Positions 287 through 30,487 of a DNA stretch of 42,929 nt are shown in pieces. Location of the stretch: IMG/VR virus record IMGVR_UViG_3300045988_057118, one strand, 5' to 3'. Below the pieces are notes generated by a model. The model ran no database searches, had not been told where the DNA came from, and saw only the letters and a list, made by a program, of their open reading frames with translations. Position 1 is the first letter of the stretch; the number at the start of each line of letters is the position of its first letter. Origin of the DNA: a virus. Position numbers and translations under genes: made by a program.

Positions 287-817
287 GTGAAAATTACAGA
301 TGATTTGAAAACAGCAACAGCCTCTCAGTCGAACTTGGCAAAAGCACTTGGGCTCTCGCGTCAACGTGTTTCGCAACTGCTCCAAGAAGGGGTTTTAGCA
401 ACGGATGAAAAGAACCAAATTCTGGTTATCAAATCCGTTATCAATTATGTCAAATATAAGGGCCAATCTTCTGCTGAAGAGGAAAGCAGTTCCGATGATG
501 CGATATTCGAGGTTGAAAAGGCCAAGAATGAACGTGCGAAACGCAAGATTGCTGAGTTGAAGCTAGCCAAAATGAACGGCGAAGTGTACTCAGCAGATAC
601 TGTAGAACAGGTTATGACAGAAATGCTTGTGAATTTGCGTACACAATTATTAGGATTGCCAACAAAACTGGCTCCACAATTACAGAATGTAACAAAAGAG
701 GAAGCATATAACCTGTTAACTCAAGAAATTGAGGACAAATTATCAGAATTAAGTGAATATACGCCGTCATTATTCATGGATAGCGATGATGCAGATGAGG
801 AGGAAGTGCGAAAATGA
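287..817 (+). CDS. Terminase small subunit (HTH, Nu1-like) candidate
   Basis: 176 aa with an N-terminal helix-turn-helix (LAKALGLSRQRVSQLLQEGV) and an acidic C-terminus, at the head of the packaging module upstream of the gpA-type large terminase. GTG start follows AGGAGG. Confidence 0.55.
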   Translation: MKITDDLKTATASQSNLAKALGLSRQRVSQLLQEGVLATDEKNQILVIKSVINYVKYKGQSSAEEESSSDDAIFEVEKAKNERAKRKIAELKLAKMNGEVYSADTVEQVMTEMLVNLRTQLLGLPTKLAPQLQNVTKEEAYNLLTQEIEDKLSELSEYTPSLFMDSDDADEEEVRK

Positions 818-2124
818 CAATATTAGATTGCATGATGAAAGCCTTATCTGTTCGTGAGCTTCATGAAATACCAGGTGTATTAATGGATGTGTTGCTTGAT
901 CATAATAAACTAGAAAGATTAATTGCGAATATGAGTGGTTGTTATTCGTATTCTGGATTATTACAGGAATTTGAAGAAAAAGCAGCAGATAGAAAAAACT
1001 ATATGCAAGACTATACGCCTCAAAGTGTTATGGATATCGTAGCAGGTATATCCACTAATGGTTGTGTAAGAGATGTATGTGCTGGCATAGGCGGTCTTTC
1101 GCTAGCTAAGTATAAGAATAATCCAGATGTAGTATTACAGCTTGAGGAATATTCTAAAAATGCGATATGTTTTTTACTTTTTAATTTGGTAATGAACGGA
1201 GTACCTGCTGTTGTAATAGAACGAAATGTACTAACTCAAGAAAATATAGCGAAATATAAGGTGGAGATTAGTAATCAAGCGCCACAGATTATCAGAGAAG
1301 TATGTATAGATGAAGGTACATATAAGGCTGATACGATTATTAGTAATCCTCCATATAGTCTATCGTGGGTGCCTGTTAATGATGAACGTTTTGATGGGTA
1401 TAAATTAGCACCAAAAAGTAAATCAGATTATGCTTTTATTTTAGATGGTATTTATTCTCTTAAAAATAACGGGACAGCAGTGTATATTTTACCGCATGGT
1501 GCCTTATTCCGCGGACAAGCTGAAGGTGATATTCGTCAAAATTTGATTAAAAACAATTTGCTTGATGCGGTAATAGGATTACCATCTAATTTATTTACCA
1601 ATACAGGGATACCTGTATGTATACTTGTATTTAAGAAAAATAGAGTAAATAAAGATATATTATTTATCGATGCTCAAAAAGGTTTCGTTAAGGATAAAAG
1701 CAAAAATATAATGACATCAGAACATGTGTTAAAAGTTATTGATACTTATAACAATCGTTCTGATATTGAAAAGTATTCAAGAAAAGTTAGCATTTCTGAA
1801 ATAGAAGAAAACGATTATAACTTGAATATACCTAGATATATTGATAGCTTTGAGCCTGAAGAAATACCAGATGCAGTACAGCTTGCTAAAGAACTGAACG
1901 AAATTAATCGAGAAAGTCGGACGTTGGGTTTAGAAATTGCGGAGATGTTAAAGCTATTAGTTTGTACGGATCCAGACGCGCAGAAGGAGCATGATGAATT
2001 TGTAAAAGAATTTACAGAATTCTTGGTATCTTCTGATAGTGCTTGTACAATTGAGGAGCAAGAAGCTGTGATAAAAAAAATAGAAGATGTTAAGAAGTAT
2101 TTACTTCAAAAGATGTTTGTGTAA
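814..2124 (+). CDS. N6-adenine DNA methyltransferase, HsdM/N-6 DNA methylase family (gamma class)
   Basis: Motif I-like CAGIGG, motif IV IISNPPYS (NPPY), and a YTPQSV motif typical of HsdM; 436 aa; start overlaps the upstream stop (translational coupling). Confidence 0.8.
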   Translation: MTILDCMMKALSVRELHEIPGVLMDVLLDHNKLERLIANMSGCYSYSGLLQEFEEKAADRKNYMQDYTPQSVMDIVAGISTNGCVRDVCAGIGGLSLAKYKNNPDVVLQLEEYSKNAICFLLFNLVMNGVPAVVIERNVLTQENIAKYKVEISNQAPQIIREVCIDEGTYKADTIISNPPYSLSWVPVNDERFDGYKLAPKSKSDYAFILDGIYSLKNNGTAVYILPHGALFRGQAEGDIRQNLIKNNLLDAVIGLPSNLFTNTGIPVCILVFKKNRVNKDILFIDAQKGFVKDKSKNIMTSEHVLKVIDTYNNRSDIEKYSRKVSISEIEENDYNLNIPRYIDSFEPEEIPDAVQLAKELNEINRESRTLGLEIAEMLKLLVCTDPDAQKEHDEFVKEFTEFLVSSDSACTIEEQEAVIKKIEDVKKYLLQKMFV

Positions 2125-2519
2125 TGTTAAAAAATTACAAGAAATTTAAAATTACGGAAGTTGCTGATATACTGGGGCGTCCTAAGAAGAATCAAATGTA
2201 TCCGGAGGGTTGTATTTGCTTGCAAGTATCTGCAAGTAAAGGGGAGTTATTATATTTAGATACATCACAACAAGTTGATGCAAAATATGTGGTGATTCAA
2301 CCGAGAAATGTAATTCCCTTTTATTTATATTTGATGATAGAAAAGGCAATGCCTGAATTCTTATATAAATATAGACAAGGACTAAATATATCAGCACATG
2401 ACATAAAACATATGGAGGTAGTGTGCCATACGGATGTCGAAACTCAGGCATTAATAGCTATGATGTTTACATCTATAAATGGTACAAGGTTAAGCGTACA
2501 AATGGGTGCGCTTTTTTAG
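2124..2519 (+). CDS. Half-size type I specificity (HsdS-like) target-recognition domain protein
   Basis: 131 aa, coupled ATGTAA overlap with the MTase. Shows the HsdS-like pattern KITEVADILGRP ... FYLYLMIEKAMPEFLYKYRQGLNISAHDIKHMEV, resembling the conserved end of a TRD. Confidence 0.5.
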   Translation: MLKNYKKFKITEVADILGRPKKNQMYPEGCICLQVSASKGELLYLDTSQQVDAKYVVIQPRNVIPFYLYLMIEKAMPEFLYKYRQGLNISAHDIKHMEVVCHTDVETQALIAMMFTSINGTRLSVQMGALF

Positions 2520-2540
2520 TTTAAAAAAGGAGGTGATAGC

Positions 2541-4445
2541 ATGAAAACGGCAAAAGAATTGTGGCAATATGTCTCTAAAATGGGTCTAAAACCACTACCT
2601 AAAACCAGTGTTAGCCAATGGGCTGATGATTATCGCATGCTATCACAAGGCCTTTCTGCTGAACCAGGACGATGGAAAACGAGTAGAGCACCATATCAAA
2701 AGGATATTATGGATGCTTTCACGCAACCTGGTATAAATCGGGTAGTTGTTAAGTCAGCATCACAGGTCGGGAAGTCGGACATAATGAATAATGTCCTCGG
2801 GCGATACGCTCACCTTGACCCATGCGCAGTCATGATGATTCAACCGACTATCGAATTAGCTCAAGATTATTCAAAGTCTCGTATCTCTCCGATGATCCGT
2901 GATACAAAAGTACTTTCACAAGTATTCTATGAAACAAAATCAGAAGACGGGGCCAAGACACGAGATGGTAAGAACACAATCTTATCTAAACTCTTTCCTG
3001 GTGGCCGTCTTATCATGTGTGGCGCGAACAGTCCAGCAGGATTGGCATCACGTCCTGTGCGTGTTCTACTAGCTGACGAAGTAGACCGCTTCCCAGATAG
3101 TGCCGGTACAGAAGGCGACCCAGTAGACCTTGCTGCAAAACGTATGACAACGTTCTGGAACAGGGTCATGGGGTTATTCTCTACGCCAACTAATGAAGGT
3201 AGCTCACGAATCGATGTAGAGTATCAAACAGGAACTCAAGAAGAGTGGCAACATGAGTGCCCTAATTGTGGTGAGTACCATTTGATACGACATACTGAGA
3301 TGGAATGTGAGACAGAGGAACATAAGGACGCTAAAGGTCGGAAGATTGTAGTAGTTAGTGATGTAAAATGGCGGTGCCCTGACTGCGGGTCCACATTCTC
3401 AGAAGATGAAATACGAAAAGTTCCTCAAAAGTATATATCGAAAAACCCTGCTGCGTTGCATAATGGCATACGCAGTTTTTTTGTAAATGGATTCACGTCT
3501 CCGTGGCTAACATGGAATGACATCATGAGGGAATGGCTAGAGGCTAAAGGCGACCCTACTCGTGAAAAGGTAGTTATGAATACACGTTTCGGTGAGTCAT
3601 ACGCACAGCAAGGTGCCTTTGAAGACTATCAACAATTCATTAGGCGTCGTGAGAAATATGGCTCAGACCTCCCGGACGGTGTATTACTGCTAACTGGAGC
3701 CGTAGATACACAAGATAATCGGTTAGAGTATGAAATCACCGGTTGGGGGTACGGCGAAGAATGTTGGGGGATATGTAAGGGCGTTATCCTTGGGGAACCT
3801 GACAATAAAGCAACATGGGATGCACTTGATGCGGTACTTGATAAGGTGTACCGCTTTAAGAATGGTACAGGCCTTAAAGTAGCTCGTGCTTTCATTGACT
3901 CCGGTGGTCACTACACATCAAAAGTCTATGAATATTGTGAAAAGAACTTCAGTAAGCAACGATTTGCCATCAAAGGTACGGCCGGAACACCTGGTATACC
4001 TTTGAATTATAAGATTGGTAAAGCATCGGGAAGCAAGATTCCGCTTGTCATGCTAGGTGTAGATGATGGGAAACAACAGGTAATGAACCGATTGGCTATC
4101 GAAGAGCCTGGTGCGAAGTACTTTCATTTCCCATTGGATGAAGAATTCCTAGGAACTAGAGGATATGACGAACTGTATTTTAAAGGGATTATCTCGGAAC
4201 ACAAGAAGAAAATAAAACGTAAGGGCGTTATCCATGAAATATGGGAACCAACTGCAGGGGTTCGTAATGAACCTTTGGATTTACGTGTATATAACCTAGC
4301 ATGTATGAATTCAATCCATCCTGATTGGGATAGATTAGCGGAAGTAGTTAAAGGTGGAGGCCATTCCACTACAACAGTAACTACTCCACGAAAGAAACCA
4401 ATACGGAAACGTGTTCGTAGGGCTAGTAAAGTAGCAGATATTTAG
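2541..4445 (+). CDS. terL: Terminase large subunit, lambda gpA family
   Basis: 634 aa with a Walker A-like VVKSASQVGKSD, a zinc-finger-like CPNCG...CPDCG, and gpA-like length and layout. RBS AAGGAGGTG. Confidence 0.9.
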   Translation: MKTAKELWQYVSKMGLKPLPKTSVSQWADDYRMLSQGLSAEPGRWKTSRAPYQKDIMDAFTQPGINRVVVKSASQVGKSDIMNNVLGRYAHLDPCAVMMIQPTIELAQDYSKSRISPMIRDTKVLSQVFYETKSEDGAKTRDGKNTILSKLFPGGRLIMCGANSPAGLASRPVRVLLADEVDRFPDSAGTEGDPVDLAAKRMTTFWNRVMGLFSTPTNEGSSRIDVEYQTGTQEEWQHECPNCGEYHLIRHTEMECETEEHKDAKGRKIVVVSDVKWRCPDCGSTFSEDEIRKVPQKYISKNPAALHNGIRSFFVNGFTSPWLTWNDIMREWLEAKGDPTREKVVMNTRFGESYAQQGAFEDYQQFIRRREKYGSDLPDGVLLLTGAVDTQDNRLEYEITGWGYGEECWGICKGVILGEPDNKATWDALDAVLDKVYRFKNGTGLKVARAFIDSGGHYTSKVYEYCEKNFSKQRFAIKGTAGTPGIPLNYKIGKASGSKIPLVMLGVDDGKQQVMNRLAIEEPGAKYFHFPLDEEFLGTRGYDELYFKGIISEHKKKIKRKGVIHEIWEPTAGVRNEPLDLRVYNLACMNSIHPDWDRLAEVVKGGGHSTTTVTTPRKKPIRKRVRRASKVADI

Positions 4446-20981: not shown

Positions 20982-21231
20982 CTATCCACACAAAACTTCC
21001 AGTATCTGCTCTGTTAGTTAAGAATCTGATTGCGGTTCTATTAGATTGAGAAAATCCACTGTTCCACGAAATAAAGCATTCCGATCCAGAAGTCGCAACA
21101 CTGACAGAGTCGTCGGTGGCTAAGGATACCAGAACAGTACTGTTAATCGGTAGCGAAATATCTTTGTAGTACCTATTGGAATCAAACCAGGATATTCCCC
21201 ACTGGGGAGTTACTTTAATAATTCTATTGTT
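20965..21231 (-). other. Silent alternative tail-fibre C-terminal cassette C1 (promoterless, inverted)
   Basis: Open frame on the minus strand beginning at inverted site SA (VTPQWGISWFDSNRYYKDISLPINSTV ... FVWIAVGLS), homologous in length and pattern to C0 and C2; its stop overlaps site SB. Confidence 0.65.
21191..21208 (-). repeat. Recombination site SA (tattCCCCACTGGggagt), inverted copy of S0, 5 bp from the recombinase stop codon
   Basis: Reverse complement contains ccagtggggaata, identical over 13 bp to S0; encodes TPQWGI in phase with S0. Confidence 0.7.
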
Positions 21232-22061
21232 TTACGTAGTTCCCGAATGGTTTTGTGCGTGTATACCCTGGTAGTGATATCGCCTTGTTTATGACCTAAC
21301 AATGCGCGTAACGTGTTAGGCGGCGCAATCGCATCAAGTAGACTTGCAAATGTGTGCCGGGTATCGTGGATAGTATGCTTGCAGTTAAGTTGTTTCATAA
21401 TATCATGGAAATGCTTGCGAAATGATGTGTAGCTGATAGTGAATAGATAATTGTCTGTATCGTTGTATAATTGCTCAATTAATGGCATGATGCGGTGATG
21501 GATGGGAATGATACGCCCTTCACCAGCTTTTGTTTTAGCGTGTCTCACAATAAGGTATAATGATCGTCTATTGATATCTTGCCTACGTAAGTTAAGTAGC
21601 TCGCCGATACGGAGCCCGGTGTAGAGCAACATTAAAATCATTTGGGAATAAGAATTATCTATCGCCCATAATTTGTTGATTTGTTGGCGAGTGAATACTC
21701 TTCTTTTAATCATTGGTATATTGGGCCCTAGATTTAAGTGTGAGGCGTAATTAGTGATAGGGTAATCTTGGATGATTGCGTAATTAAATAATTGATTAAG
21801 TAACGTGCGGACTTTCTTACATGATGAGTAAGAAAGTCCTTTTACGTGCATGGAATTAATCACATTTTGAAGGTGCTGAAAATGAATATCCGTGATAGGC
21901 ATATCCGCTATGTTGGATATGTGTTTAAAAGCAATATGGTAAGACTTAACGACACTCTTAGTAATAGCTTGTGAGTGAATAGGCAACCACTCGTTAAATA
22001 GTTGCCTTAATGTAATGGTATTGCGTTGTCTACGTTTTAGTATAACGGCGTAACGGCGCAT
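21210..22061 (-). CDS. Tyrosine site-specific recombinase (Rci/shufflon-type invertase candidate)
   Basis: 283 aa with catalytic motifs TGLRIGEL (Arg), HDTRHTFAS (H-x-x-R), LGH, and TRVYTH (Tyr). RBS GGAGGTG; located directly adjacent to the invertible tail-fibre segment. Confidence 0.8.
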   Translation of the reverse strand: MRRYAVILKRRQRNTITLRQLFNEWLPIHSQAITKSVVKSYHIAFKHISNIADMPITDIHFQHLQNVINSMHVKGLSYSSCKKVRTLLNQLFNYAIIQDYPITNYASHLNLGPNIPMIKRRVFTRQQINKLWAIDNSYSQMILMLLYTGLRIGELLNLRRQDINRRSLYLIVRHAKTKAGEGRIIPIHHRIMPLIEQLYNDTDNYLFTISYTSFRKHFHDIMKQLNCKHTIHDTRHTFASLLDAIAPPNTLRALLGHKQGDITTRVYTHKTIRELRKTIELLK

Positions 22062-25413: not shown

Positions 25414-25459
25414 TTTGACATCATAAAGTCTTATGCGGTTTGACATCATTTTGACATCA
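25414..25459 (+). repeat. Integrase arm-type sites, right arm (three direct TTTGACATCA copies)
   Basis: Copies at 25414-25423, 25439-25448 and 25450-25459; the last overlaps the int stop codon. Confidence 0.55.
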
Positions 25460-26530
25460 GAATATTTTAGCGATGCGCTCCACGATGTCATCTTCCATTT
25501 TAGGAGTGACGTGTGAGTAGGTATCCATTGTTTCTTGAAATGAAGCGTGCCCTAGACGTTCCTGTATGGCTTTCATATTTGCGCCATTTTCAATGAGAAG
25601 AGTAGCGTGAGTATGTCTAGTGCCATGCATTGTAAAAGATGGCTTACCGATTAAATTAGCGTATTTCTTACATAACTTACTAACCTCATCAGGACAGCGA
25701 GGTGCACCTTTGATGCCAGGGAATACTAGATTGTTATTAATCCAGTTCATTGTCTTAATTCTGCGTTTATCTATGACTATTTTATGCTTAATAAGTTCCT
25801 GGAGTGTATCCGTATCGATTGCTATTACACGTTTAGAGGATGTTGTTTTAGTTGTATTTGATATAACTGCAGTTGATCCGATTTTGAGTGCTGTTTGTGA
25901 GATAGATATGGTCGATTTCTTAAAGTCGATATCAGACCATCTTAGGCCTAACAATTCAGAGCGTCGCATACCAGTTGCAAATGCTAATTTAAAGAGTGCG
26001 TGATGTTCTGAGTTAGATATATTGGATAAGAAGTTTTTAACCTCATCTACAGATAGCGTTACCATATGCCGAACTTTAACCTGCTTTGGCCGGTCTATGT
26101 TTTTCATATAGTTCTTAGGGATGATGTCATCTTTTACCGCCTGCTCTAATATTGAGCCTAGAATTGTCATTGTGTAGGAGATAGTTCTTGATGATAATCC
26201 GCCCATCGACTCAAAGACATAGCGTAATGTATTGGGTTTAATCTCAGCTAGCTTTACATTGCCAATTTTGTTTCTAATATAGCGATTTATGATGCCTGTA
26301 TAACTTTGGTAGGTAGATGGCGTTATGGTCTTTTCTTTTAATTGTAACCATATATTAATCCATGTATTCAACGAGATAGTATCATCGAAATTTGCACATG
26401 ATTGATTAGTACTGATATACTTTTCCATGGCTTCAGTAGCAGCTTTCTTAGTGCTGCCATAAAAGTATTTTCGCTTACCGTTTATCACCTTAGATACCTG
26501 GTAGCGACCATCGGCTCGTTTTTTAGCCAT
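25457..26530 (-). CDS. int: Tyrosine integrase
   Basis: Start at MAKKRADGRYQ with AAGGAGG RBS (the ORF track's upstream extension lacks an RBS). C-terminal catalytic motifs HGTRHTHATL, LGH, YSH; adjacent to attP. Confidence 0.9.
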   Translation of the reverse strand: MAKKRADGRYQVSKVINGKRKYFYGSTKKAATEAMEKYISTNQSCANFDDTISLNTWINIWLQLKEKTITPSTYQSYTGIINRYIRNKIGNVKLAEIKPNTLRYVFESMGGLSSRTISYTMTILGSILEQAVKDDIIPKNYMKNIDRPKQVKVRHMVTLSVDEVKNFLSNISNSEHHALFKLAFATGMRRSELLGLRWSDIDFKKSTISISQTALKIGSTAVISNTTKTTSSKRVIAIDTDTLQELIKHKIVIDKRRIKTMNWINNNLVFPGIKGAPRCPDEVSKLCKKYANLIGKPSFTMHGTRHTHATLLIENGANMKAIQERLGHASFQETMDTYSHVTPKMEDDIVERIAKIF

Positions 26531-26633
26531 AAAAATAACCTCCTTGACATAGTGAATAAGCCTTAGAGGTTTTATGTGATATAATGATATTGGAGTAAAA
26601 ATGAAGTACCTCTGAGGTATGTAGTTTTTAATG

Positions 26634-26662
26634 GCCCTCACTGCGGTGAGGGCTTATTTTTA
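26634..26662 (+). terminator. Intrinsic terminator-like hairpin between int and the abi gene
   Basis: gccctcac tgcg gtgagggc hairpin followed by ttattttta. Confidence 0.45.
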
Positions 26663-27619
26663 TGTAATTATCTTCTTGGTATTTGAGTGCCAATCAATAG
26701 GAAATCCTAATTTTATTAAGATATCATTTATACGAATAGATTCGAGCTTTGGAGCCAATTTTTTCACTAACTTTAGTACCGAGTTATGTAGTGTGGCATA
26801 TTCGATGCGGCTTAAAAAACATTGTAGTGAAAGAAAAACAGTGTAGGGAGTGTTTCTTGGGGTATTTGACGTAATGCAATATTTAGAGTGTAATGGCGCC
26901 CAATAGCGATCATCTGCGGGGCAATGGTGCCCGATTAATCTATTACTGTGCGCGCAAACGTTTCTGATGTCGTGCATGTTTTTTACAAAGCTTATCATTG
27001 TAGCCGGAGGAAATTGCCCCGGATTTTGAATATGTTCTGAAATAAAGCTTATGCAATCACGAGCTACTTTGTTTTGTACAGAAGTCGTTGAATTAGTTAA
27101 TAAATATCGAAATGCTCCAAATTCAATATAGCTAGATAATACCCAAATGGGTACTTTCTTATATTTATTTATGTAGTGATAAATACTGGAGTCTTTATAG
27201 CGTTTACAATTATATCTTGTAAGTATTTTAGATAGTTTAGATATAGTCTCTATACTCTCTAGGCGCTTAGTGGAATCGTAACAATTTATATCTAAATAAG
27301 GGTAAGGGTCGTTTGGGAATGTCTCGGAAAATCTATGAACAAACAACGCTTTTAAGTGTGTTTCTGCGCTAAGAATGGCATTTAGTAGTTCTTGCTTAAG
27401 CTCCTTTTCGAATCGATATAGTTTAGCAATTTCATCAAAGTTAGTATTAGCGGTGTAATTATCATTGTTATCGTGTGGAAAAAAATTAGCATAGCCGTTA
27501 ATAATATTGTAATAGTTTTGACTTAACAAATATGCTTTTGCCTTATCAATATCATTAATGACAAGCTTTCGTCCAAGAAGTATTTGAATTTGCTCATCTA
27601 TCGTTTTAAATTCTTTCAA
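26660..27619 (-). CDS. Abortive-infection protein, Abi_2 family (AbiD/AbiF-like)
   Basis: 319 aa; N-terminal EQIQILLGRKLVIND ... YYNIINGY and a conserved IRNVCAHSNRLIG motif typical of Abi_2 proteins. Confidence 0.7.
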   Translation of the reverse strand: MKEFKTIDEQIQILLGRKLVINDIDKAKAYLLSQNYYNIINGYANFFPHDNNDNYTANTNFDEIAKLYRFEKELKQELLNAILSAETHLKALFVHRFSETFPNDPYPYLDINCYDSTKRLESIETISKLSKILTRYNCKRYKDSSIYHYINKYKKVPIWVLSSYIEFGAFRYLLTNSTTSVQNKVARDCISFISEHIQNPGQFPPATMISFVKNMHDIRNVCAHSNRLIGHHCPADDRYWAPLHSKYCITSNTPRNTPYTVFLSLQCFLSRIEYATLHNSVLKLVKKLAPKLESIRINDILIKLGFPIDWHSNTKKIIT

Positions 27620-27769: not shown

Positions 27770-28129
27770 CTAAAATACAGAATCTAATACATCGTCATAC
27801 CAGTGCTTTTTCTTTTCTTTCTTAGAGGGTTCTTGCTGAATATCTTCAGAATACGTTCTGTGCATTTCGTTGGCTGCTTGCCACTTTGCTAATGCCTTAT
27901 CAGTGCCTTCATCGACTTTGTGCAACTCGTCAATTTGTTCTTGTGTCATATTGATAGTTCGTTCAAGATATTCTTGTTCCTCTAATAACTCAGTACTTCC
28001 ATCATCATAATGAACTAATACTTTAGGACCGTCTAAAGCCTTAAATTCGTCATGAGATACTTCTGTTCTGGCAAAACCGGTTACGGTAACTAAGGTAAGC
28101 ATAGTTGTAATTAACAAAGTCTTTTTCAT
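27770..28129 (-). CDS. Secreted protein with signal peptide (function unknown; exclusion/conversion candidate)
   Basis: 119 aa; N-terminal MKKTLLITTMLTLVTVTGFA signal peptide without a lipobox Cys; highly charged mature part. Confidence 0.5.
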   Translation of the reverse strand: MKKTLLITTMLTLVTVTGFARTEVSHDEFKALDGPKVLVHYDDGSTELLEEQEYLERTINMTQEQIDELHKVDEGTDKALAKWQAANEMHRTYSEDIQQEPSKKEKKKHWYDDVLDSVF

Positions 28130-28155
28130 TTTTAAATCTCCCTTTATATATTCCC

Positions 28156-28431
28156 TTATAACGCCGATAAATAATGGTGGTAAAAAGCTATATTTTCCAA
28201 TTCGGATTCATCGACGTGAGACCTACGAACCATTTGCTCAATAAGGTCCACGTGTTTATCCAAGAAAAAGTCATCATTAATAATATGAATTAATTCATGC
28301 TTAATTTCCTCCCTCATACGATCATGAGGGAGGTTTCTATTTATGTAGATATTATGGGTATCCACATCTTCACATTCCTCCGATACAGCGTTGGCATGTG
28401 GTAAATCACAGTAAATTACATTAACTACCAA
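28156..28431 (-). CDS. ImmA/IrrE-like metallopeptidase (short)
   Basis: 91 aa with HEXXH (KHELIHII), located immediately downstream of the cI-like repressor on the same strand. Confidence 0.5.
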   Translation of the reverse strand: MVVNVIYCDLPHANAVSEECEDVDTHNIYINRNLPHDRMREEIKHELIHIINDDFFLDKHVDLIEQMVRRSHVDESELENIAFYHHYLSAL

Positions 28432-28452
28432 ATTAACACTCTCCCTTATATA

Positions 28453-28839
28453 CTATTTATTTTTTAATTTTAATAGTTCTATATATTCAACTGCTTTCTC
28501 CATATCCTCCTTACTAATATCTTTTGCTGCAGAGAATAACATACGGGCCCCTGGGCGTGTACGCAAGTATTCGGCGAATTCAGCAGCTTCTTTATCTAAG
28601 TAATATTCCTCTTCAGTTTTATCTTGCTTTTCTACTAATTCCGATTTTGACACGTGAAAATAGTTCGCCATCATTTCAATTTTATCTATTCTTGGATATG
28701 TATTGCCTTTCAACCAATCTGTTAACGTAGTGTATTTAAACCCTAAATCAGCACATAGTCTATTTCGGTCTATTCCGCGACTATCCATTAGCCTTTGGAG
28801 ATTTTGGGCCATAATCTCCTTATTGCCTAAATCACTCAT
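28453..28839 (-). CDS. CI-like repressor, XRE-family HTH
   Basis: 128 aa with N-terminal HTH (QNLQRLMDSRGIDRNRLCADLG); divergent from the cro-like gene across the operator region. Confidence 0.75.
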   Translation of the reverse strand: MSDLGNKEIMAQNLQRLMDSRGIDRNRLCADLGFKYTTLTDWLKGNTYPRIDKIEMMANYFHVSKSELVEKQDKTEEEYYLDKEAAEFAEYLRTRPGARMLFSAAKDISKEDMEKAVEYIELLKLKNK

Positions 28840-28889
28840 CTCAAATTTCCTCTCTATAATAAATTCATAATAATTAATAATATAATACG

Positions 28890-28980
28890 ATATTTCCGTA
28901 ATAAATTCAATATTTAAACTAAAAATTTACGATATTTTACGGAAATTTAATAGACATTACGGTAAAACCGTAGTATACTC
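28890..28980. promoter_or_regulatory. Immunity switch region: operator O-a TTACGGTAAAACCGTAG (28957-28973) within the spacer of a TAGACA-17-TATACT promoter, plus TTACGG-type half-sites at 28893-28902 and 28936-28947
   Basis: Palindrome with arms TACGGT/ACCGTA; -35 TAGACA (28951-28956) and -10 TATACT (28974-28979) exactly 17 bp apart; inverted half-site pair atttccgtaa / ttacggaaat. Confidence 0.55.
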
Positions 28981-29023
28981 TAATCATGATAATAAGTCAT
29001 GTTAATAAGAAAGGAGGTAGTTT

Positions 29024-29212
29024 ATGAAATATACACTTAGAATGCTCCGCGCATCCAAGTCTTGGACGCAAGCTCAAGCCGCAAAAGAAATTGGCGTATC
29101 AACTGAGACTTGGGGGAATTGGGAGCGTAAGCGATCTTATCCAGATGTACCAAACATATCTAAGATAGAACAGGTATTCAATGTCGCTTATGATGATATT
29201 ATTTTTTTATAG
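29024..29212 (+). CDS. Cro-like HTH regulator
   Basis: 62 aa XRE-type HTH (WTQAQAAKEIGVSTETWGNWER); RBS AAGGAGG; first gene of the rightward early operon. Confidence 0.65.
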   Translation: MKYTLRMLRASKSWTQAQAAKEIGVSTETWGNWERKRSYPDVPNISKIEQVFNVAYDDIIFL

Positions 29213-29216
29213 CCAC

Positions 29217-29233
29217 TTACGGTTTTACCGTAA
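29217..29233. promoter_or_regulatory. Second copy of the 17-bp operator (TTACGGTTTTACCGTAA), immediately downstream of cro
   Basis: Reverse complement equals O-a at 28957-28973 over 16 of 17 positions. Confidence 0.5.
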
Positions 29234-29340
29234 AAATAAAGAAAAGGAAGGAATATGAAAATAGTAAAACTCATTACAAAAGCAACGTTAAAAAAGTAAA
29301 AGCCACCAACAAAGTTAGTGGCAGTAGCGAGGGGCATTAA

Positions 29341-29616
29341 ATGAAAGAGGAAAAACATATTAAAATACTCCGCCAACAGCTGGAACTATTGACGGAGTTG
29401 CAAAAACAAGTGGATGATCCACAAATAATCATGGAGTTATCTGACAAAATAATTGTGTTATCTGATGTACTAACTAATCTAGAAGAATCACAAAATAATA
29501 AATTATCTGTTTGGAAAGACGCATCATTAATTTATCAATTAGCCTTATCAATTCAAAATAAATGTGCAAAAGATATAGATGAATTATTTGCTCTGAGCAG
29601 TGACAAAAGCAAATAG
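29341..29616 (+). CDS. Hypothetical protein
   Basis: 91-aa ORF with an upstream RBS-like GGCAGTAGCGAGG. Confidence 0.4.
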   Translation: MKEEKHIKILRQQLELLTELQKQVDDPQIIMELSDKIIVLSDVLTNLEESQNNKLSVWKDASLIYQLALSIQNKCAKDIDELFALSSDKSK

Positions 29617-30167
29617 CATCTGCATAACTGCGATAGCAATATGTTGATGCTTGTGGAGTACATTAGAAAATTTTGATAATAGACCTTTTTGCACGGGGAT
29701 ATCATTACTTAAGTTTGTTTCTAGCAAATGGAGCATTTTTCTAAACGCTTCTTTTTCTTCCATAGATATATTTTTGTCATTGTCAATTAGATTTGAAATT
29801 GAATTTATGGATTGATCTATAGAAATTGAAATATTTTCTTGTGAACCAATTATAGAATTTCCATTTATAGTGCCAATGTTAAATATATTGGTTGCATTAG
29901 AGCGTTTATGAGCACGCTGATAGTCTGTTTCATAATTTAAAATGGCGCCATCAGTCATTCCCAAAGGTTTTACATCTATAACATGGTAGTTCTTTTTGTT
30001 ATGAACCAAGATATCGCCTTCTATTATATCTGAAAATTCTAATGTTTGAATGGAGTTTGGATATTTACTAGAACAGAAAAATCCATACACTTTGTCAGCG
30101 ATTACTTTATTATTTCGTATTACAGTAAATAATTCAGACATATTTTTAAATGGGGCAACCGGCATTT
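29584..30167 (-). CDS. Hypothetical protein encoded antisense to the early operon (moron/defence candidate)
   Basis: 194 aa from ATG (complement of 30165-30167) with GGAGGTG 6 nt upstream; the RBS sits in the 7-bp stem aatcacc/ggtgatt; convergent with the 29341 ORF. Confidence 0.5.
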
Positions 30168-30286
30168 TGAATTTCATTATAATCACCTCCTTTCAAGGTG
30201 ATTATACAAACAATTATTTAAGAATACGCAAAATATTCATGAAAATTTTATGAACATCTATAAAGAAGATATAAAGGAGGATTATT

Positions 30287-30487
30287 GTGGACAGGAATAA
30301 ATTATGCATAACAGTCGCTGAGGCTGCTGAACTAGCAAGCGTTCCTCAAGATGTGATTCGTCAATGGGCGGCTGACTTTGATTTTCCGTCGATGAAGATA
30401 GGGGCCCGAGGAGGTAAACGATTGATCCATTTAGATTCGTTTAATGCATGGCTAGGGAAACGATGCCAAGCAAGAATAGGAGAGTGA
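30287..30487 (+). CDS. xis: Excisionase-like HTH DNA-binding protein
   Basis: 66 aa with an Xis/MerR-like pattern (ITVAEAAELASVPQDVIRQWA); RBS AAGGAGG. Confidence 0.55.
   Translation: MDRNKLCITVAEAAELASVPQDVIRQWAADFDFPSMKIGARGGKRLIHLDSFNAWLGKRCQARIGE

Follow-up and report, generated by a model that had tools for sequence, protein, structure and literature searches.

A Veillonella phage carries, between its terminase small- and large-subunit genes (terS and terL), a pair of genes for a DNA methyltransferase and its specificity subunit. The sequence is IMG/VR virus record IMGVR_UViG_3300045988_057118, a stretch of 42,929 nucleotides that is referred to as a whole as the window. The first gene, M, encodes an HsdM-type gamma-class N6-adenine methyltransferase, and the second, S, a small subunit with a single target-recognition domain (TRD). 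The cassette is probably an orphan 'Type I½' (M.AhdI-like) N6-adenine methyltransferase, which would be expressed late, assemble as M2S2, methylate de novo and protect the phage DNA from host restriction. The four genes follow one another in the order terS-M-S-terL, all on the + strand:

287–817, +, terS, terminase small subunit, 176 aa (phrog_57, 8.4e-34)
814–2124, +, M, HsdM-type gamma-class N6-adenine DNA methyltransferase, 436 aa (Pfam, PDB, PADLOC and AlphaFold, AF2)
2124–2519, +, S, single-TRD specificity subunit, 131 aa (PADLOC and AF2 fold)
2541–4445, +, terL, GpA-type terminase large subunit, 634 aa (GpA_ATPase 9e-69, GpA_nuclease 2e-70, phrog_15 3.9e-212)

A preliminary description of this DNA had already placed a 436-aa gamma-class N6-adenine methyltransferase between the two terminase genes; both open reading frames (ORFs) of the pair lie where it had put them, and the flanking genes were confirmed by phrog_57, GpA_ATPase and GpA_nuclease. 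The same description proposed that M and S are translationally coupled. The two genes do overlap, but through a single base at a GTG-TAA-TG junction (TAATG; stop at 2122–2124, start at 2124–2126), and not through the 'ATGTAA' that it had quoted. The start of M also overlaps the stop of terS, the two sharing the ATGA at 814–817, so that M would be coupled to terS too. terL has a ribosome-binding site of its own, AAGGAGG at 2527–2533.

Identity of the M and S subunits

M passes the Pfam profile N6_Mtase (PF02384) with 219.3 bits against a cut-off of 20.4 (E = 1e-64), and its motifs stand in the required order: motif X, YTP (aa 67–69, nt 1012–1020), motif I, CAGIGG (aa 89–94, nt 1078–1095), and motif IV, NPPY (aa 178–181, nt 1345–1356), all three of them as first reported. 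PADLOC matched M to MTase_I (1.5e-77). The best phmmer match among PDB sequences was 3lkd, the type I M subunit of Streptococcus thermophilus (3.5e-67), with further matches to EcoR124 HsdM (1.1e-38) and PacII M1 (1.6e-36), and the 21 best PDB fold matches of the AF2 model (pLDDT 86.5) were all type I M subunits (HsdM). The profile, PADLOC, PDB and fold results agree, and bear out the initial view of M as HsdM-like. The alignment envelope of 3lkd with M begins at chain residue 173, and no HsdM_N match was obtained for M in the Pfam search; M lacks the N-terminal domain of HsdM (~170 residues) and has ~60 residues of short helices in its place. On its sequence, M is best regarded as an HsdM-type enzyme, but not as a full-length HsdM. 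One source gives the closest homologues of M as those of Veillonella parvula.

S consists of a TRD (aa 1–104), the N-terminal half of a dimerisation helix (aa 105–119) and a tail modelled with low confidence (aa 120–131). A canonical HsdS has two TRDs and two conserved helical regions in one chain, whereas S has one TRD and ~15 helix residues in 131 aa. PADLOC gave four matches for S, all to Specificity_I (best E = 1.7e-4), and the homologue of S in the Streptococcus equinus phage Pika (tblastn, 3e-14) passes the Pfam profile Methylase_S with 23.5 bits. An NCBIfam search of S, and a Pfam search of an artificial concatenate of the M tail and S, gave no match. The profile of the S family found nothing meaningful among PDB sequences (its sole match was a ketohexokinase, E = 0.9), so that a fold search was needed instead. 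The AF2 model of S has a pLDDT of 86.5, with residues 121–131 below 50, and its top nine PDB matches in Foldseek were all HsdS proteins (probability 1.00, TM-score (TMq) 0.59–0.74), the probability falling to 0.08 at the tenth. The HsdS matches include 5ybb_D, 1yf2, 3okg, 1ydx, 7eew, 7vs4_C, 2y7c_A and 7bst_A, among which are the fused M-S enzyme of Vibrio vulnificus (7eew) and the S subunits of PacII, EcoKI and EcoR124. The match to 7eew has an E-value of 4.3e-4 for S and 2.1e-16 for M, at a sequence identity of only 13–18%. Because PADLOC, the Pika homologue, the fold matches of the model and the family search described below agree, we regard the assignment of S as a type I TRD, predicted from sequence and model, as settled. 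The two sequence strings by which the preliminary description had recognised an HsdS-like TRD, FYLYLMIEKAMPEFL and NISAHDIKHMEV, are present in S, and its reading of the 131-aa ORF holds on the fold, on PADLOC and on the Pika homologue; the lack of any similarity to a TRD fold, by which it would have been refuted, is contradicted by the Foldseek matches.

An exhaustive profile search for relatives of S returned 269 representative clusters. Most members stand alone, with 120–160 aa, beside an M gene in phages, and all homologues examined in public records are labelled 'hypothetical protein' and have no precomputed Pfam domain. At least 15 of the clusters are natural fusions of M and S (538–606 aa; P0174, P0181 and others), with the S domain following the HsdM-like domain. 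Two further members, P0202 and P0233, are ordinary HsdS proteins with two TRDs, of which the S family corresponds to TRD1; the ORF upstream of P0202, on a short contig of 2.8 kb, gave no methylase match. An M gene followed by a small overlapping S gene recurs in unrelated phages (the Streptococcus pneumoniae phage IPP23, S. equinus phages and Enterococcus phages), immediately precedes the terminase genes in two metagenomic phages and is present also in Veillonella and Megasphaera genomes. Wherever the pair recurs the gene order is constant, M first and the overlapping S second. The recurrence of the pair in unrelated phages, the existence of the fusions and the sharing of the TRD family with two-TRD HsdS proteins suggest that M and S work together.

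Another apparent fusion was rejected as evidence of this kind. The 'DNA methylase' of Lactobacillus phage Lv-1 (L002:3191–4318, representative P0299, 375 aa) joins the N-terminal, AdoMet-binding half of the M family to the TRD family; it lacks NPPY, and the 538–606-aa fusions were used instead. Since this catalytic motif is missing, the Lv-1 protein is, despite its annotation, probably not an active methylase.

PADLOC also matched M (814–2121) to mad2 (3.6e-20) and the S homologue of locus L004 (L004:3111–3551) to mad5 (4.3e-5), both components of the methylation-associated defence system MADS. These matches probably reflect the shared ancestry of HsdM and HsdS.

A nuclease partner was looked for in the window. 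Among its ten largest non-structural ORFs, Pfam found no ResIII, helicase or HSDR_N match that would point to an HsdR, in keeping with the earlier statement that the window has no R subunit; these ORFs matched two integrases, Abi_2, PcfJ, AAA_23, ANT/Bro, RecT, a metallo-beta-lactamase fold, Lin1244_N and an IstB-like ATPase. Ten further ORFs matched only PHROGs of unknown function or endolysin, with one matching no family. No cognate Type II endonuclease gene adjoins M or S, the cassette being bounded by terS and terL. The only [ND]PP[YFW] motif among the window ORFs of at least 100 aa is that of M.

Division of the dimerisation helix between M and S

S is shorter than most of its family at the C-terminus, and the missing part appears to be carried by M. 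The features concerned are:

1873–2031, +, HsdM-type C-terminal helical hairpin of M, aa 354–406 (aligns up to residue 533 of 542 in 3lkd; AF2 helices H354–380 and H387–406)
2044–2121, +, extra C-terminal helix of M, aa 411–436, CTIEEQEAVIKKIEDVKKYLLQKMFV, matching the C-terminal half of the S dimerisation helix (HMM, MAFFT and AF2)
2073–2080, +, A8 homopolymer in the tail of M, just 5' of the relocated helix motif (sequence)

A hidden Markov model (HMM) built from 92 stand-alone members of the S family (147 positions) ends in a helix of ~40 residues with the HsdS-type motif ...K-x-y-m-l-x-k-M-F-V, and the full helix is found in most members of the family and in all fusions examined. The window S covers positions 4–121 only, its helix ending after ~15 residues. 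Positions 123–147, missing from S, match the C-terminus of M (aa 411–436, ...EEQEAVIKKIEDVKKYLLQKMFV) with 14.9 bits (E = 8.5e-7, single target). The M tail bears the HsdS-type sequence ...KKYLLQKMFV and corresponds to the final ~25 residues of the dimerisation helix of S. In a MAFFT alignment the tail of the window M is split, and EDVKKYLLQKMFV is aligned to the extreme C-terminus of the natural fusions, after the TRD. The AlphaFold model places a third C-terminal helix at 413–433, past the two helices of the HsdM-type hairpin, whose type I counterpart packs on the S coiled coil.

The same HMM tail match was obtained with the M of the Megasphaera relative L005 (62% identical), and the M of L004, IPP23 and Pika, each paired with a full-length S, have negative scores with the S-family HMM. 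The split is found in L005 and in Megasphaera micronuciformis (L092), both at ~62% identity, and also in an unrelated contig (L094). From these alignments and models, the dimerisation helix of the half-S is predicted to be divided, in the clade of the window, between two polypeptides, M and S. With part of the helix on M, any dimer could not be a simple half-S homodimer. By analogy, the split would fit the known circular permutability of S subunits, those of Type IC being described as able to 'begin and end within D2' (PMC3874165). No description of a helix fragment attached to M was found in the literature searched.

The A8 tract is the site of a frameshift in one relative (L073:3440–3620; protein P0138, 422 aa), with loss of the relocated helix IEDVKKYLLQKMFV. 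This could be real variation, by slippage, or an assembly error. That the split helix is a functional new topology which makes the assembly of M with S obligatory, and that the A8 tract in addition serves as a slippage switch removing the helix, is a long shot; if it were true, a phage population would toggle between a dimer-competent palindromic methylase and another specificity or no activity.

The cassette as an optional insertion

The relatives of the window were retrieved via TerL as 80 viral contigs, whose TerL is 97–100% identical to that of the window except in L082 (80%); in 77 of them the upstream region is included and the junction is informative. In 66 of the 77 the site is empty, terS being followed by terL after 48 nt, which agrees with the earlier premise that these two genes are normally contiguous. 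Ten carry M and S, and one (L025) has a deletion scar. In this scar (L025:3799–3979), codons 1–23 of M are joined to codons 96–131 of S, with terS and terL intact, and the cassette can thus be lost by internal deletion. The inserted segment and its right-hand boundary are as follows:

~816–2503, no strand assigned, inserted cassette, ~1.69 kb, GC 0.33 (homology to empty sites is lost after nt 815 and is back between 2492 and 2508)
2492–2517, +, terminator-like hairpin and T-run, AAGCGTAC-aaatgg-GTGCGCTT-TTTT (hairpin scan, 2492–2513)

At the left boundary, the last four codons of the window terS differ from those of cassette-free relatives: in tblastn searches, aa 1–172 match in relatives with an empty site and aa 1–176 in cassette carriers. 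At the right boundary, the window differs from the empty loci L006 and L020 by only two to three substitutions from GCGCTTTTTTAG (2508) on, and is identical to them from AAAAAAGGAGG through the start of terL. The hairpin at 2492–2513 is the counterpart of one in the empty junction, and now encodes the last codons of S. In L006 (L006:3945–3975) the empty junction has a hairpin and T-run, AAAGCGCC-aaatta-GGCGCTTTTTT, with the terS stop codon in its loop, 20–30 nt before terL; a pattern scan did not call it. Between the terminase genes this hairpin may serve as an attenuator or a terminator. No direct repeat flanking the cassette was supported, the local alignment of its left and right sides being no better than that of shuffles (810/1000). 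A comparison of the S tail with a duplicated terS 3' end was suggestive but not significant (140/2000 shuffles, p ~0.07), and a backbone origin of the end of S is therefore claimed only from about nt 2492–2508.

The composition of the cassette is foreign, with a GC content of 0.329 as compared with 0.408 for terS, 0.439 for terL and 0.391 for the rest of the window. The distribution among relatives and the sequence of the junctions point to the M-S cassette as an optional, horizontally acquired insertion. In comparisons with cassette-bearing relatives, dN/dS is 0.10–0.22 for M and ~0.10–0.12 for S, indicating purifying selection on both. Relative to L024 and L087, synonymous divergence is 0–0.035 over terS, M and S and 0.40–0.43 in the adjacent terL (window 287–4445), which argues for a recent exchange of the block between phage backbones, with a breakpoint at the S/terL boundary.

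The cassette had been called a moron. Its presence and absence among near-identical phages support that name, but a classical moron would also have a promoter and a terminator of its own: here 12 promoter-like sites were found against 15.3 expected from shuffles, the cassette is coupled to terS, and its only terminator-like hairpin, at the 3' end, comes from the phage backbone. It is therefore not a classical moron. A megablast search of the terS-terL region against GenBank phages gave no match.

About 15 of the close relatives (L067–L081, e.g. L068:2597–5671) have a TerL of 1024 aa, with an intein-like insertion of ~390 aa that is absent from the TerL of the window. It lies right after the Walker-A sequence SASQVGK, starts with ALDVETPI and ends with ...IPTHN before SDIMNN.

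Proposed function, alternatives and known systems

In the proposed mechanism, M would provide AdoMet binding and catalysis and S the single TRD, neither being expected to bind DNA alone, as is the case for the M and S subunits of known enzymes (PMC3874165). The two would be made 1:1 from the late packaging transcript by translational coupling and would most likely assemble head to head as (M·S)2. Single-TRD S subunits act as inverted pairs joined by antiparallel helices, and S subunits tolerate circular permutation (PMC3874165); here aa 105–119 of S and aa 411–436 of M would together restore the coiled coil by which two TRDs are normally joined. The target of the complex would be an interrupted palindrome, with one adenine methylated in each strand. 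Since the N-terminal domain of HsdM is missing, the enzyme would probably act de novo, on phage DNA that has just been replicated and is still unmethylated; M.EcoKI becomes a de novo methylase through mutations in the N-terminal part of its M (PMC3874165). The progeny would in this way be shielded from host restriction enzymes that read the same sites. We infer the 2:2 stoichiometry, the palindromic target, the late timing, the de novo activity and the anti-restriction role by analogy with known systems, and we infer methylation just as the DNA is packaged, which the preliminary description had put forward, only from the position of the genes in the packaging operon. Neither a methylome of a Veillonella phage nor an account of the M-S module was found in the literature searched.

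Several results weigh against this reading. The Pfam profile Methylase_S (PF01420), with which the preliminary description had suggested checking S, gave 13.9 bits for the window S itself (E = 0.062), under the cut-off of 22, and on Pfam alone the reading of S would stay unproven. M reaches 177.5 bits with the NCBIfam hsdM equivalog TIGR00497, under its cut-off of 242.75, and matches profile positions 201–509 only. The helix on S is short, with ~15 residues, as is the M-tail match of 14.9 bits; and two other short members of the S family, L093 and L095, have no relocated helix on their M, so that some of the family may act without dimerising. Finally, 66 of the 77 informative relatives do without the cassette, so that any benefit would be conditional.

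The short helix on S, the disordered tail of its model and the M tails of L093 and L095 would suit a monomeric M1S1 enzyme, that is, a split M.TaqI-like gamma methylase which does not dimerise through a coiled coil and whose site is short and continuous; C-terminal dimerisation helices are absent from monomeric gamma methylases, M.TaqI among them (PMC3874165). However, the missing half of the helix sits on M, with its HsdS-type ...KKYLLQKMFV conserved across genera, and the helix is complete in most of the S family and in all fusions examined, and we consider such a monomer unlikely. Nor is the cassette likely to be a decaying hsdM-hsdS fragment carried passively. Signs of decay could be seen in the truncation of S with respect to its family, in its last codons, which come from the backbone, in the deletion scar of the relative L025 and in the frameshifted M of the relative L073; yet all catalytic motifs are intact, dN/dS is 0.10–0.22 for M and ~0.1 for S, and the split arrangement is conserved at ~62% identity in Megasphaera, all of which leaves an inactive remnant barely credible.

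The place of the genes raises the question whether the methylase might regulate packaging or gene expression, for instance by controlling terminase recognition. The cassette sits between terS and terL, with M coupled to terS, terminase genes are neighbours of related cassettes in other phages too, and Dam methylation, which acts at the P1 pac site, provides a precedent for packaging control. Against this, the 66 relatives with an empty site, with TerL 97–100% identical, package without the cassette, and one relative has deleted it; the cassette is therefore not required for packaging. The junction of the replication and packaging modules is moreover a common site for phage accessory genes, and a regulatory role is very unlikely. 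M and S could instead borrow a host HsdR and give a lysogen or infected cell a new restriction specificity, for defence or competition and not for self-protection. M is near Type IC-like HsdM proteins (3lkd and EcoR124I, the Type IC assignment being made for EcoR124 only and not for 3lkd), the TRD family occurs also in ordinary two-TRD HsdS proteins, and the prophage has another defence gene, Abi_2. On the other hand, no R gene was found among the ten largest non-structural ORFs of the window, the cassette lies inside the late packaging operon, coupled to terS and with no promoter-like signal above chance, and M lacks the entire N-terminal domain of HsdM; the chance that it serves as such a specificity module is slim indeed.

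Orphan self-protection by an M2S2 methylase, the preferred reading, can be set beside several known systems. Among the closest are the 'Type 1 1/2' enzymes M.AhdI, M.BsaBI and M.PshAI, which consist of 2M+2S, with a single-TRD S, and recognise interrupted palindromes (Loenen et al. 2014, PMC3874165). The window module shares with them a separate HsdM-like M and a small single-TRD S with a type I-like dimerisation helix motif; the 2M+2S composition and the interrupted-palindrome target would be expected here, with indirect support from the two helix halves on S and M. Those enzymes have a cognate Type II endonuclease, whereas the window module has none and sits in a phage packaging operon, with the C-terminal half of the S helix fused to M. 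Half-S homodimers also function in Type IC systems (PMC3874165), as in EcoR124I delta-50, the EcoDXXI truncations and the natural NgoAV. There too a single TRD with a dimerisation helix replaces a two-TRD HsdS and gives palindromic specificity, and M matches the HsdM of EcoR124 (Type IC; 1.1e-38). However, these systems are complete restriction enzymes that include HsdR, with an M that keeps its N-terminal domain, whereas the window M is N-terminally short and is accompanied by no R.

The 'minimal intact MTase' of V. vulnificus YJ016 (7eew; Seo et al. 2022, cited in PMC12429846) is likewise a one-TRD type I methylase unit, analogous to the natural fusions of the S family; it is one fused polypeptide encoded at a chromosomal type I locus, whereas in the window the helix is divided between the products of two genes. 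Of the circularly permuted HsdS proteins (the Type IA, IB and IC orders; EcoAI cp380), those of Type IC similarly have their termini within the dimerisation helix, but in the window the helix fragment is off S and covalently on the C-terminus of M. Known phage methylases are mostly single-chain and Type II-like, such as Dam and the C5 methylases, while the window enzyme would need a separate specificity subunit. With the orphan methyltransferases of lactococcal and S. thermophilus phages (PMC5601072, where C5 methylases are among the phage methylases) it shares an accessory character, a patchy distribution, the lack of a nuclease and a reading as protection against restriction-modification (R-M).

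The lack of an R subunit, an M without the N-terminal domain and an S with a single TRD set the window module apart from Type I R-M systems, and the lack of an endonuclease sets it apart from Type II systems like that of AhdI. The most fitting description is that of a phage-borne orphan variant, with a split dimerisation helix, of the 'Type 1 1/2' / Type IC half-S kind. The reading given in the preliminary description was supported wherever it was put to the test. As such it is real but a fairly ordinary accessory, which would not surprise a specialist and does not overturn current understanding. The move of half of the S coiled coil to M would extend the known permutation tolerance of S subunits. 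The wider family marks a gap in annotation, with at least 269 representative clusters of single-TRD subunits whose recognition would improve the annotation of phage methylases and the assignment of methylome motifs. The near-identical Veillonella phages with, without and with a deleted cassette constitute a natural experiment in which the contribution of a methylase to host range could be measured in an oral and gut commensal.

Elsewhere in the window, two tyrosine-integrase genes and, beside the second, the Abi_2 gene lie on the − strand (21210–22061, 25457–26641 and 26660–27619). The Abi_2 (abortive infection-like) gene is likely a prophage-borne defence gene in the lysogeny region. The stretch of lowest GC content in the window, at 28100–30300, belongs to the lysogeny and regulatory region and has a lower GC content than the cassette, ~0.31–0.33 in windows of 1.7 kb.

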